From positions 1-55,667 of IMG/VR virus record IMGVR_UViG_3300009163_000042: a stretch of 55,667 bases of DNA. One strand, given 5' to 3'. Position 1 is the first letter of the stretch. The number at the start of each line of letters is the position of its first letter. Below are positions 35,755 to 55,667 of the stretch, one piece after another. This DNA is from a virus. Lineage: Duplodnaviria > Caudoviricetes. The notes beneath the pieces are model-generated. The model ran no database searches and was not told the origin of the DNA. It was given only the letters and a program-made list of their open reading frames with translations. A program made the translations under genes and the position numbers.

Positions 35755-35829
35755 TGGTCCGGCGTAGAGGAATCGAACCTCTATAATGACTTTAGAAGAA
35801 TCATGTCCTATCCGTTGAACGAACGCCAG
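35755..35829 (-). tRNA. tRNA-Arg (anticodon UCU)
   Basis: CTGGCGT/ACGCCGG acceptor stem, GTTC-AACGGATA-GGAC D arm, TGATT-CT TCT AA-AGTCA anticodon arm, AGAGG-TTCGATT-CCTCT T arm, encoded CCA. Confidence 0.95.
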
Positions 35830-35837
35830 ATAGATCT

Positions 35838-35866
35838 ATTATATCAAATAGACGATTTATTGTACA
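35838..35866 (-). promoter_or_regulatory. promoter of tRNA-Arg(UCU)
   Basis: TGTACA-ATAAATCGT-CTATTTGA-TATAAT, 8 nt above the tRNA 5' end. Confidence 0.85.
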
Positions 35867-36486
35867 GGCTTTTTTCTTGCTTTTTTTACTGCTGGCTTTT
35901 TGGCTCTAGGCTTAGGCGTGGGCTTATTTGACATTTCTATCTTATTATTTAAACGTTTGACTACTTCTTCACCATCCATCCACATATCTTTATTTTCAAG
36001 CATAGCTTTTATCTCTACTTCTGTCATAAAGTCTTTATAGACTTCATTCATTAGACGCTCTGACCATTTACGTTCATGCTTAAGTTGATCTATCATTTCT
36101 CCACCTTTTCCAAATACTCCACCAGAATAATTGTGGAACATAAAGATAGAATGAGGAGTAACCTCAAATTTATGGCCGCATAAAAAAATCATAGTTGCAG
36201 CTGACATGCATGCACCTTCTACTGAACATACTACAGTAGCTTGGGTATCCGCAAGAACTCTCATAAATTGTATTGCAGTAAAAAGATCTCCGCCCGGACT
36301 ATTGATATAAATCTTAATTAAATCTGTCTCGTCAGCATGTCGAATAGTATCAAACCATTCAACATAATTATCTGCAGTATCAATCTCTTCCGTCAAATAA
36401 AATTCATAAAGATTAGCGATTGGTTTACCCGGAAAAAATCCATTCGAGTGAACTTTAGGTCTTCCAATTTCAAGTGTATCAGCCAT
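35857..36486 (-). CDS. clpP: ClpP-like serine protease
   Basis: IYINSPGG, GACMSAA (nucleophile Ser), FMFHN, KDMWM; basic C-terminal tail; start 36486 (GGAG SD) or 36498. Confidence 0.85.
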   Translation of the reverse strand: MADTLEIGRPKVHSNGFFPGKPIANLYEFYLTEEIDTADNYVEWFDTIRHADETDLIKIYINSPGGDLFTAIQFMRVLADTQATVVCSVEGACMSAATMIFLCGHKFEVTPHSIFMFHNYSGGVFGKGGEMIDQLKHERKWSERLMNEVYKDFMTEVEIKAMLENKDMWMDGEEVVKRLNNKIEMSNKPTPKPRAKKPAVKKARKKPVQ

Positions 36487-36507
36487 TATATCTCCCATTA
36501 ATATACA

Positions 36508-38430: not shown

Positions 38431-38552
38431 TTTAATTTCCTTAGAAAAAGTTTTTAAATAATACTATCAACTTGTCAGATTTGTCGCAATGTGTTCAGTA
38501 CGAGATATGTAATGGTATCGGTTGCTGGCATCAAGCATAGACTAACTAACAT

Positions 38553-38743
38553 TGGTAGGTTATTCTGTTACGAGGAAACCTACCGAAACCCTAAGCCGAG
38601 TTTAGGCGGCTAATGCGAACTGTGAGTCGTTTGCTTTTACTTTTTTTTGCTTCTACGACCGGGTTACTCCCAATCCTACGGGTTTCACATTCCCGTGCTG
38701 TCCACTCATTTACTTGTTGCCCTGTCGAATCTAGATCACCCCC
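38553..38743 (-). ncRNA. ssrA: tmRNA coding piece of a permuted two-piece tmRNA; tag ANDSQFALAA* at 38634-38602
   Basis: 5' GGGGGTGATCTAGATTCGACAGGG, A-rich run before resume codon GCA, GCA AAC GAC TCA CAG TTC GCA TTA GCC GCC TAA, hairpin over the stop, downstream pseudoknot; 3' end approximate. Confidence 0.92.
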
Positions 38744-38778
38744 AACTAATTGCTTTCTTTGTGCCAACCATTTTAAAA

Positions 38779-38852
38779 TGGTGGATATAACGAGAATCGA
38801 CCTCGTATTTTACAAATTCGGAGTTTGCATGTCCTACTTGGACGATATACCC
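38779..38852 (-). tRNA. non-canonical tRNA-Arg (anticodon CCG) inside the tmRNA intervening segment
   Basis: GGGTATA TC GTCC-AAGTA-GGAC A TGCAAA-CTCCGAA-TTTGTA AAAT ACGAG-GTCGATT-CTCGT TATATCC ACCA (74 nt). Confidence 0.8.
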
Positions 38853-38863
38853 GAAAACAATTA

Positions 38864-38926
38864 GGTGGAGGTGGGGGGATTCGCACCCCCGTCCAGAACA
38901 CTTTTCTCTTTGCTTCATACAGCAAT
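38864..38926 (-). ncRNA. ssrA: tmRNA acceptor piece (T arm + 3' acceptor strand), upstream of the coding piece
   Basis: TGCTGT...GTGTTCTGGAC GGGGG-TGCGAAT-CCCCC CACCTCC A CC; CACCTCC pairs with GGGGGTG giving G3-U70; TGTTCT pairs with AGGGCA and TGCTGT with ACAGCA; 5' end approximate. Confidence 0.9.
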
Positions 38927-39499
38927 TCAATAACTAACTAACTTTCTATCTGCTAATGTGAATTCGCTATCTCTCACAAAAGCAGTTAAAATATATTTCG
39001 ATCCACTAATTATACTATCACCTCGATGATACATTGGTTCTTGCATATTATACTTAATAGTAAGACAGCTTCCACGTTTTGGCTTAATTCTCATATTAGA
39101 TTTATGAAAGATTGTATGCCCACCTTCAAAATCATCATTAAGATACATAATCATCGTAGCAATTCTTTGAGATTTAAACCCTGATGTTAGATCTGTGTGA
39201 AAGTCAACATAATCTCCAACATCATATCTTATGAGAAGAAGAGGCTCAATTTTCATAAAGTTTTCAACATTAAAAAAATCAGCTACTCGTTTTAACATAG
39301 AATCGAAGTATTCGTTATTACCATATTCGATTCTATGAATCTTACATTTTCTAGTATCATTAAATATTAGTTCACCATCAACACGAACTTTTGCATCTTT
39401 CCAATTATAATCTTTAGATAAGATCTCTTCAATATCTTTTTCACTTAACCAATTATCGTATTCGGTGATTAATGGATTTAAGCTATGGTATGTTACCAT
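38927..39499 (-). CDS. 2OG-Fe(II) oxygenase, prolyl-4-hydroxylase-like
   Basis: RYDVGDYVDFHTD, RIATMIMYLNDDFEGGHTIF, YHRGDSIISGSKY. Confidence 0.9.
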   Translation of the reverse strand: MVTYHSLNPLITEYDNWLSEKDIEEILSKDYNWKDAKVRVDGELIFNDTRKCKIHRIEYGNNEYFDSMLKRVADFFNVENFMKIEPLLLIRYDVGDYVDFHTDLTSGFKSQRIATMIMYLNDDFEGGHTIFHKSNMRIKPKRGSCLTIKYNMQEPMYHRGDSIISGSKYILTAFVRDSEFTLADRKLVSY

Positions 39500-54529: not shown

Positions 54530-54738
54530 TATAATCCGTATTGTCTTGCTATAGCCAATGCAGCCCAAGAAGCGCCGAGGGCTTCCTTATGAGCTTCGTC
54601 CTTTTCTAGAGAATCAGCCATTCTATCAGCACAAGCCAAGCATTCATTGATGATCAACTCGGCGAACTTTTGACGATCCAACCAACCGGTCTTAGGATCT
54701 GATGCCTGTAATGCTAACAATGTGATTCGTTCGTTCAT
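54529..54738 (-). CDS. MNERI-family small protein, copy 2
   Basis: MNERITLLALQA...KFAELIINEC...IARQYGL. Confidence 0.75.
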   Translation of the reverse strand: MNERITLLALQASDPKTGWLDRQKFAELIINECLACADRMADSLEKDEAHKEALGASWAALAIARQYGL

Positions 54739-55019
54739 TACATACTCCAATATGTTTCAGAAGCTGGATTGCAGCACCAAGGCGTATCAGCAGGAATCTG
54801 TACATCCTTGCCGGTCATCAGGCTCTTAACCGTTTTCATAGTAGGATGATACTCGAACCGCCAGCCTTTTGTTGCAGGATACATGTCATAGACTTCGTTA
54901 CTTTCGCGACGCATACCTGCCTCATCGCGATTAGCCCAGACAGTAGTACTATAAAGGCGCTCGCCGGTTTTACACCGACCGTCACGCTTATAAATGTACA
55001 TAGTATAATCTTGCTTCAT
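54738..55019 (-). CDS. conserved phage hypothetical protein
   Basis: IYKRDGRCKTGERL, TVKSLMTGKDV, TPWCCNPASETYWSM. Confidence 0.8.
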   Translation of the reverse strand: MKQDYTMYIYKRDGRCKTGERLYSTTVWANRDEAGMRRESNEVYDMYPATKGWRFEYHPTMKTVKSLMTGKDVQIPADTPWCCNPASETYWSM

Positions 55020-55083: not shown

Positions 55084-55305
55084 TCATAGTTTCTCTCCAC
55101 AATGCGGACACAGTTTGGTACTAGCTTTACGCATTTCTTTCAGTGTCTTGTTTAGTTTCTTAGCATCAGTCAGCTGACTTTTAATTTTCTTACGATCTCG
55201 TTCGTGTTTGGCCTTGCCGAGTTCAGCTTTAAGATGCAGTTTCATTTTCTGAAGACGACCTTCAAAGATCTCTATAAAGCCTGTTATGCCAGTTGACTCA
55301 CTCAT
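55084..55305 (-). CDS. coiled-coil protein with C-terminal CPHCG
   Basis: 73-aa ORF; LCPHCGEKL. Confidence 0.7.
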   Translation of the reverse strand: MSESTGITGFIEIFEGRLQKMKLHLKAELGKAKHERDRKKIKSQLTDAKKLNKTLKEMRKASTKLCPHCGEKL

Positions 55306-55526
55306 TCTTCAACTCCGAAATGTCCTTTAATCAACTTGCCAAAGGTTACGTATGGTAGTGAAATATCGTTTTCATCTACGAGCCGGGCGCATTCCCGCAC
55401 AATCAACTCGGCGAACTTTGCTAAATCTGTTTGAGTGGTATAATAGATTGGTTCAGGTTCTAATGCCAAATCGTCATCAAATTCTAAACCAGCCTGTTCA
55501 GCAAGTTCTCGAATTCGTTCGTTCAT
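55302..55526 (-). CDS. MNERI-family small protein, copy 1
   Basis: MNERIRELAEQAG...KFAELIVRECA...IKGHFGVEE. Confidence 0.78.
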   Translation of the reverse strand: MNERIRELAEQAGLEFDDDLALEPEPIYYTTQTDLAKFAELIVRECARLVDENDISLPYVTFGKLIKGHFGVEE

Positions 55527-55667
55527 ACCGTTTTTCCTCTTCTTCTGATTGCTGCTTGCAACGAACAAAAATCGTCATGTGCTTTACGGGTTGTCTCCGC
55601 GTGTTTGTTGCTATGGCAATGAATAGACCACCACTTTCGTGCAAATTCTTCAACCTCCCTAGCACAC
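55523..55667 (-). CDS. 3' end of a small hypothetical gene (truncated by the window)
   Basis: ...CAREVEEFARKWW...QAAIRRRGKTV*; ATGA overlap with the next gene. Confidence 0.55.
   Translation of the reverse strand, partial: CAREVEEFARKWWSIHCHSNKHAETTRKAHDDFCSLQAAIRRRGKTV

Follow-up and report, generated by a model that had tools for sequence, protein, structure and literature searches.

The stretch of DNA analysed here (hereafter the window) comprises positions 1 to 55,667 of the uncultured virus record IMGVR_UViG_3300009163_000042 in IMG/VR, a 55.7-kb lake phage fragment with an estimated completeness of 35% and a G+C content of 35%, whose genes include tail, baseplate, endolysin and ClpP-like genes. 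The element under study is a tRNA-Arg(CCG) gene that lies inside a transfer-messenger RNA (tmRNA) gene. ARAGORN called a permuted tmRNA with the tag ANDSQFALAA at 38511-38955 on the minus strand and, nested inside it on the same strand, tRNA-Arg(ccg) at 38779-38852. With Rfam, tmRNA_permuted scored 119 bits over 38924-38602 and beta_tmRNA 95.9 bits over 38976-38547, and both RF04321 and RF01850 are matched by the tmRNA. The gene has the order acceptor piece, spacer, coding piece, a tRNA-like domain with G3:U70, and a tag open reading frame (ORF) that ends in ...AA followed by a stop codon. By this layout it is a two-piece (permuted) tmRNA gene, and its RNA is predicted to be cut into two base-paired RNAs. 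The features of the locus are as follows.

38547-38976, minus strand: whole permuted two-piece tmRNA gene, tag ANDSQFALAA (Rfam; ARAGORN permuted tmRNA call)
38864-38924, minus strand: tmRNA acceptor piece, with T arm GGGGG-UGCGAAU-CCCCC, 3′ acceptor strand CACCUCC and ACC end (Rfam alignment; sequence)
38744-38863, minus strand: intervening segment of 120 nt, predicted to be absent from the mature tmRNA (between ACC and G1 of the coding piece at 38743)
38858-38863, minus strand: 5′ arm UAAUUG of the extended spacer stem, prolonging the tmRNA acceptor helix (pairs with CAAUUA, 38752-38747)
38747-38752, minus strand: 3′ arm CAAUUA of the extended spacer stem (sequence; homologues; minimum free energy (MFE) folds of the precursor)
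38779-38852, minus strand: nested tRNA, 74 nt, CCA encoded (ARAGORN; Rfam tRNA, 46.8 bits; covariation in nine homologues; its own covariance model)
38819-38821, minus strand: anticodon CCG, predicted to read CGG, in the loop C-U-CCG-A-A (ARAGORN; sequence; invariant in 9/9)
38767-38782, minus strand: palindrome/hairpin ACCAUUUUAAAAUGGU, predicted to sequester A73-CCA (sequence; tail folds of 9/9 homologues)
38547-38743, minus strand: tmRNA coding piece, 5′ end GGGGGUG, whose G3 pairs with U70 of the acceptor piece; tag ORF at 38634-38602 (ARAGORN; Rfam; sequence)

The nested tRNA (38852-38779) lies wholly within the spacer (38863-38744) and takes up 74 of its 120 nt. Because the base after ACC (38866-38864) is T, the acceptor piece lacks an encoded terminal A. 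A scan for sigma-70 promoters and terminators gave nothing informative for the tmRNA unit.

Structure of the nested tRNA

The nested tRNA has a 7-bp acceptor stem (GGGUAUA/UAUAUCC) that contains G3:U70 and is followed by U8 and C9. The D stem GUCC/GGAC encloses a D loop of 5 nt, AAGUA, without GG; an A precedes the anticodon stem UGCAAA/UUUGUA, which has 6 bp and closes the anticodon loop CUCCGAA; and the variable loop AAAU, the T stem ACGAG/CUCGU with the T loop GUCGAUU, A73 and CCA complete the molecule. An earlier note, made from the letters of the window alone, had already remarked on the four paired stems, the D loop without GG, the T loop and the sixth anticodon-stem pair, all of which are present; it overlooked G3:U70 and A73. 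When the element was scanned by itself, to keep the overlapping tmRNA from hiding it, it scored 46.8 bits with the Rfam tRNA model (RF00005, gathering threshold 29), compared with 49.6 bits for the canonical tRNA-Arg(TCT) of the window.

The canonical elbow is absent from the element and from its homologues, which together form a set of nine distinct sequences described below. There is no G18G19, and the T loop starts with GU in seven sequences (GUCRAUU) and with UG in two (UGCRAUU); both C56 and A58 are retained. About 1.7 Mb of related phage DNA contains 237 other distinct tRNAs, of which none has G54, four have a D loop without GG and three a D loop of at most 5 nt. The anticodon loop is of the ordinary length of 7 nt, with U33 in eight of the nine (C in L136) and A37 in all. 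Two initiator-like tRNA-Met(cat) genes in related loci (C1 opposite A72) have a D loop without GG and the T loop UGCGAAU, which is common to them, the window tmRNA and two nested-tRNA variants, and an alternative elbow design may recur.

The same note had placed the ACCA end inside a perfect 16-nt palindrome, and this is confirmed (ACCATTTTAAAATGGT at 38782-38767). The window has five perfect 16-nt palindromes where simulation gives 1.4 on average, so the palindrome is unremarkable by itself; what had gone unseen is that it is the window-specific form of a conserved shorter hairpin. As a separate observation, the last leader base together with G1 and G2 (38853-38851 in the window) reads CGG in eight of the nine sequences, the complement of the anticodon of this tRNA, and in single-sequence folds the leader UUCGG pairs with the loop CCGAA; this is probably due to chance.

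Homologues, a free-standing relative and the contents of tmRNA spacers

A search with the D arm of the nested tRNA recovered six viral and seven metagenome contigs which, with the window, provide the nine distinct sequences. All nine lie in permuted phage tmRNA genes, and these are of two divergent types: one with the acceptor strand GGGGGUG and the tag ANDSQFALAA or ANDAQFALAA, the other with GGGCCUG and tags of 26-27 residues. In the alignment, the 22 pairs of the cloverleaf are paired in 98.5% of 198 cells, with 3/198 unpaired, and six pairs have changed on both sides. The observed covariation score was matched in none of 500 shuffles, and when the structure was shifted by 1-3 columns only 34-52% of cells paired. 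The anticodon and T stems differ between homologues by compensatory substitutions. None of the six anticodon-stem pairs is constant (for the sixth, four sequences have U-A, two A-U, one G-C and two G.A), while the anticodon CCG, A37, C56 and A58 are invariant. The nine show no differences in the acceptor stem, the D arm or the 3′ ACCA, an identity that is partly ascertainment, the search patterns having spanned positions 2-22 or the 3′ strand; U70 lies outside the D-arm pattern, yet it is never C in the homologues.

Judged from these substitutions, the nested element is a genuine tRNA gene maintained by selection and not a gene in decay. The earlier note had read the intact stems and altered loops as selection on shape, which the near-complete pairing, the two-sided changes, the failure of shuffles to match the covariation score and the invariant anticodon bear out; it had also proposed that anticodon conservation be examined among homologues, where CCG proves constant in the midst of a varying stem. 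Random decay of stems and anticodon, the contrary pattern that it had envisaged, is the opposite of what was found. The family was detected in viral and metagenome contigs: the cultured-phage database gave no match to the tmRNA region and only chance fragments for the nested tRNA, a set of one genome per bacterial species gave no match to the D-arm 21-mer or to a tag-coding 26-mer, and a 3′-strand search pattern added only the chance matches L131 and L132, neither of which is a tRNA.

A covariance model built from the nine nested sequences gives 96-105 bits to the family and at most 46 bits to ordinary phage tRNAs. A 74-nt tRNA at 266-339 of contig L117 scores between them, at 60.7 bits (60.8 bits with Rfam); ARAGORN missed it. 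This relative belongs to a tRNA cluster, and its sequence is the same in eight contigs from a single phage population, one of them a complete 128-kb genome. Its anticodon is CCG, its T stem and 3′ end are nearly those of the nested form, and its elbow is again non-canonical, with the D loop AAUGAUA and the T loop UCUGAUU. The acceptor stem GGGGAUA/UAUCUCC has G3:U70 and G4-C69, together with A73, and no hairpin follows the CCA. CCG tRNAs of this type are therefore not confined to tmRNA genes, and the hairpin is tied to the nested setting. The phage that carries the free-standing form has a tRNA-Trp that adjoins or overlaps the tmRNA called by ARAGORN at its 5′ end (4473-4938 of L180 in genome G009; 2904-3369 of L117), and tRNAs also closely flank that tmRNA.

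The 2OG-oxygenase gene neighbouring the tmRNA led to four phage contigs (L001-L004) with an adjoining permuted tmRNA, none of which holds the nested tRNA. The spacers of L003 and L004 measure about 24 nt, and those of L001 (3644-3838) and L002 (4035-4199) are filled by ORFs of 64 and 54 amino acids (aa), respectively, behind the ribosome-binding-like AAGGAAG. A 23-nt motif of the T arm of the window tmRNA led to at least 120 further viral loci, after a first attempt with the exact T-arm 23-mer had given no matches. Among the matches listed, only two of 123 tmRNA segments hold a tRNA in the spacer, the window and L076; across 112 loci the spacers range from 21 to 383 nt in 83 distinct sequences, and the long ones often contain an ORF, of up to 122 aa. 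Small ORFs, some of 86-122 aa, fill many related spacers almost end to end, the spacers of L099/L109, L031 and L013/L033 being 285-383 nt long, and protein-coding cargo may therefore also ride in the excised segment.

Since nearly all relatives lack the nested tRNA, the tmRNA does not depend on it. The homologues occupy two tmRNA types with different acceptor stems and with tags of 10 to 27 aa, which again befits cargo. On this comparative evidence the nested tRNA is optional cargo in the tmRNA spacer and not a device for tmRNA maturation.

Elsewhere in the window, a ClpP-like ATP-dependent protease gene (35857-36498, minus strand) lies beside tRNA-Arg(TCT) (35755-35829, minus strand), about 2.5 kb from the tmRNA. 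The phage thus encodes an RNA that adds a degradation tag as well as a ClpP-family protease.

Precursor folding, decoding and amino-acid identity

All nine spacers start and end with complementary arms that extend the tmRNA acceptor helix. These are UAAUUG/CAAUUA in the window, UAAUUAGU/ACUAAUUA in L129 and UAAUUACU/AGUAAUUA in L135; the stem is 8 bp long in the homologue versions, and L129 and L135 differ by a compensatory change from G-C to C-G. Precursors were folded from the 3′ acceptor strand of the tmRNA to the 5′ strand of the coding piece. The MFE structures retain the tmRNA acceptor helix and the extended stem, with the four-arm tRNA in seven of nine and the ACCA hairpin in eight of nine. 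In the hairpin, (C)CACCA pairs with a following UGGUG or similar sequence. When the tail alone was folded, it formed in all nine (-5.6 to -7.7 kcal/mol), the 16-nt palindrome of the window being its longest version and the hairpin of L076 lying in a shifted register. Single-sequence folding misses the cloverleaf of this AT-rich tRNA and was not taken as evidence.

The reading that we favour, with somewhat more confidence than doubt, is that the element rides in the loop of the stem-closed intervening segment of the two-piece tmRNA gene and, once released, reads CGG, probably as arginine, the tmRNA having no need of it. RNase P generates the 5′ end of the coding piece in two-piece tmRNAs. One precursor would be transcribed and then cleaved by RNase P at two G1 residues, that of the nested tRNA (38852) and that of the coding piece (38743), leaving an 11-nt trailer on the acceptor piece and a 35-nt trailer on the tRNA. 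Host 3′-5′ exonucleases would then shorten the free ends as far as ACC in the acceptor piece and CCA in the tRNA, so that each transcript could give three RNAs with only the enzymes that serve every two-piece tmRNA. In the precursor, the ACCA hairpin, a feature of the nested context, would close a three-way junction and mask the CCA. We infer these steps from general knowledge of the maturation of two-piece tmRNAs and tRNAs.

The released tRNA, with its reduced elbow (no G18G19 and no U54-U55), would most likely decode the rare codon CGG. Its anticodon loop CUCCGAA is that of the phages' own tRNA-Arg(UCG), CUUCGAA, save for position 34, and in the jumbo carriers G001 and G002 (30-33 tRNAs) the nested tRNA would complete an arginine set of ACG, UCG and UCU, with CCU as well in one of them. 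The amino acid is probably arginine. Carrier genes offered 15 CGG sites with three or more homologues, at which the mean aligned fraction of Arg was 0.58 and that of Ala 0.02; CGU, CGA, CGC and AGG sites give the same picture as CGG, and alanine codons give Ala at 0.55-0.59. Recoding of CGG to alanine, considered as a candidate, is ruled out by this alignment. No Pfam match to a phage arginyl-tRNA synthetase (ArgRS) or alanyl-tRNA synthetase (AlaRS) was found in G000-G003, records that are only 9-35% complete.

For bacterial arginine identity, Table 1 of PMC9976931 lists A20 (the main Escherichia coli ArgRS determinant), C35, G or U at 36, A or G at 73 and C3-G70, and for alanine identity G3.U70, A73, G2-C71, G4-C69 and G20. 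The nested tRNA has C35 and G36 in all nine copies, and A73. The alanine set is incomplete, in that 4-69 is U-A and not G-C, G20 cannot be assigned, and the anticodon is CCG and not NGC. The free-standing D loop AAUGAUA is one G short of the Arg-type AAUGGAUA of the phages and retains the A that the nested loop lacks by the same comparison.

Several observations weigh against the reading of a released arginine tRNA. Position 3-70 is G:U instead of C-G, the D loop AAGUA, which is without U, G and A by comparison with AAUGGAUA, seems to have lost A20 (the numbering of a 5-nt loop is uncertain), and G3:U70, A73 and G2-C71 of the alanine set are all present. Because C35, G36 and A73 stand together with G3:U70, G2-C71 and A73, and A20 is seemingly lost, the nested tRNA could be accepted by AlaRS or ArgRS, or by both enzymes. 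CGG is absent from the 16,073 codons of window ORFs of at least 100 aa, and it occurs 14 times in the 35,740 codons of the complete genome G009, which has the free-standing form (0.39 per 1000). The carriers G001-G003 use it at 0.7-1.05 per 1000, like the non-carrier controls G005, G007 and G008 of like G+C. Since these phages hardly use CGG, codon supply is a weak motive. Metatranscriptome contigs (four runs, 85% likeness) cover only 38552-38744 and 38864-38926 and not the nested tRNA, although contigs can show neither ends nor absence; most are 90-95% alike and therefore come from relatives, and one skips 38738-38864. The reduced elbow could also impair the action of RNase P or the use of the tRNA by EF-Tu or the ribosome.

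An initial comparison suggested that carriers avoid CGG (16/37,895 against 469/264,985 codons), and this candidate was dropped because G001-G003 match the controls in larger samples. At the rate of non-carrier relatives of like G+C (about 0.7-1.3 per 1000), 10-20 CGG codons would be expected in the window, where in-frame CGG is found only in the short doubtful ORFs 54738-55019 and 55302-55568 and in an antisense ORF over the tmRNA.

An alternative that we consider unlikely starts from the acceptor stem: AlaRS, which is blind to anticodons, would charge the nested tRNA through G3:U70, A73 and G2-C71, as it would the surrounding tmRNA, and alanine would be inserted at CGG, either relieving ribosomes starved at the host's rarest arginine codon alongside tmRNA or mistranslating host proteins and sparing the CGG-poor phage. 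G1-C72, G2-C71, G3:U70 and A73 are found in all nine nested copies, and the D-arm searches would have caught U70C; the diverged free-standing homologue shares that acceptor set and adds G4-C69; a tRNA-Tyr given G3.U70 accepts both amino acids (PMC9976931); and A20 is apparently missing from the 5-nt D loop. The lack of CGG in the window compared with like-GC non-carriers fits as well, as does the fact that the phage's other tRNAs mostly read A/U-ending codons. However, CGG avoidance is not general among carriers, whose CGG sites align with arginine and hardly ever with alanine, and C35 and G36 would still attract ArgRS. G3:U70 is moreover tolerated in six distinct non-Ala phage tRNAs whose own identity is presumably intact (an L080-type canonical tRNA-Arg(acg) with A73, three tRNA-Gln(ttg), one Trp and one His), which weakens it as a proof of alanine identity. 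A wider version of this idea, in which the phage tmRNA and a hybrid-identity, AlaRS-charged, CGG-reading tRNA form one alanine-based module that clears ribosomes stuck at the host's scarcest arginine codon or mistranslates the host, the phage's own genes being kept without CGG, seems to us quite unlikely.

The conservation of the anticodon loop in phages that barely use CGG, and a core unlike any of the 237 other phage tRNAs, would also suit a non-decoding anti-defence RNA, either a decoy that draws off a host nuclease or other factor targeting tRNA-Arg or a substitute resistant to it, with the altered elbow escaping or trapping that factor. Phage tRNAs that evade or neutralise tRNA-targeting defences have been described (PMC10264068, PMC11464382, PMC11555353), but the published escape variants alter the anticodon loop, whereas here the loop is ordinary and the elbow odd. 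No tRNA-Arg-directed defence is known for the carrier's host, a sponge would have no use for G3:U70, A73 and an encoded CCA in every copy, and a replacement tRNA would be pointless for a phage with almost no CGG; there is thus only a small chance, in our view, that such a role is the right one. The earlier note had offered an RNase P-recruiting mimic that matures the tmRNA, and a purely cis-acting module of this kind, whose tRNA shape recruits RNase P, opens the spacer and holds the tmRNA ends with no role after excision, would explain why the element sits exactly in the loop of the extended stem with its ends joined by its own acceptor stem, why a cut at G1 would leave so short a trailer on the acceptor piece, and why the ACCA hairpin is specific to the nested context. 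It is nevertheless very unlikely: among the matches listed, 121 of 123 related tmRNA segments lack the element, close relatives have spacers of 22-24 nt or other cargo, a homologue stands free in a tRNA cluster in eight contigs of one phage population, and a processing handle would not need an anticodon that is invariant amid covarying stems. That the element is a decaying pseudogene or a chance cloverleaf could be argued from its non-canonical loops, the weak thermodynamic signal of a 101-nt stretch (z = -1.85) and the cloverleaf being the MFE structure in only one of nine isolated sequences. It is already contradicted by the compensatory changes, by the absence of broken stems with only 3 of 198 cells unpaired, and by a family that spans divergent phages from several collections, and is close to untenable.

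Comparison with known systems

Two-piece tmRNAs are reported from Alphaproteobacteria, Betaproteobacteria and cyanobacteria (Keiler, Shapiro and Williams 2000; Sharkady and Williams 2004; both cited in PMC9004378). The window gene shares with the bacterial forms and with that of phage Melnitz the gene order, the G3:U70 tRNA-like domain and the ...ALAA tag; the spacers described for them are short and non-coding, whereas the window spacer holds a second, independent RNA gene. Phage Melnitz has a two-piece tmRNA, and of 133 unique phage tmRNA structures 53 were assigned to that class (PMC9004378). The closest precedent is in PMC11915505, where the intervening sequence of a permuted tmRNA gene from one nominally archaeal metagenome-assembled genome record contains an intact tRNA-Ala gene, described as 'a unique feature'; the pipeline of that study rejected most tmRNA calls overlapped by a strong tRNA match, unless the gene was permuted and the match strong. 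In both cases a complete tRNA gene lies wholly in the excised spacer of a circularly permuted tmRNA gene. That case is a single high-scoring canonical tRNA-Ala, whereas the present one concerns phages, at least nine distinct tmRNA genes of two types, a CCG anticodon, a reduced elbow and a CCA hairpin. Beyond that paper, a literature search with supplementary tables outside its range found no further report of a tRNA in a tmRNA spacer. What stood in print as a single curiosity (PMC11915505) is here a conserved family.

The discarded spacer of a phage two-piece tmRNA gene is a cargo slot able to carry a working-looking RNA gene, and one transcript and one host enzyme set could yield three RNAs. 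The tRNAs in the spacers of bacterial rRNA operons and in the tRNA clusters of phage T4 are embedded in larger precursors and released by RNase P. There, as proposed here, general tRNA-processing enzymes excise the embedded tRNA and also make the flanking RNA ends; the difference is that in the window the host RNA is itself a tRNA mimic that would use the same enzymes, and the insert lies in the segment to be discarded.

Reduced D-loop/T-loop elbows are found in tRNA-Pyl, in animal mitochondrial tRNAs and in the cell-wall tRNA-Gly isoacceptors of Staphylococcus aureus. The last are the subject of PMC7826273. The nested tRNA resembles such tRNAs in its short D loop without G18G19, a T loop that does not start with UU and an extra anticodon-stem pair; it differs in having the standard U8, C9 linker and a 4-nt variable loop, and there is no sign of a dedicated synthetase or a non-ribosomal acceptor. 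With the engineered tRNAs of PMC9976931 into which G3:U70 was transplanted, it shares alanine acceptor determinants combined with the anticodon determinants of another isotype (here C35 and G36); those double-identity tRNAs are artificial, whereas the nested tRNA is natural and its dual identity putative. Charging with arginine, if it takes place, shows to what extent a tRNA can do without the bacterial core and the ArgRS identity set; charging with alanine would make it a mistranslating tRNA of natural origin, linked to ribosome rescue. Selection keeps an outlier here: its elbow is minimal, its acceptor stem is of the alanine type, and its arginine anticodon matches a codon that the phage scarcely uses. 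What is new in relation to the systems above is a conserved nested family with an intact anticodon, a reduced elbow, an alanine-type acceptor stem and a context-specific CCA hairpin, together with a free-standing relative.

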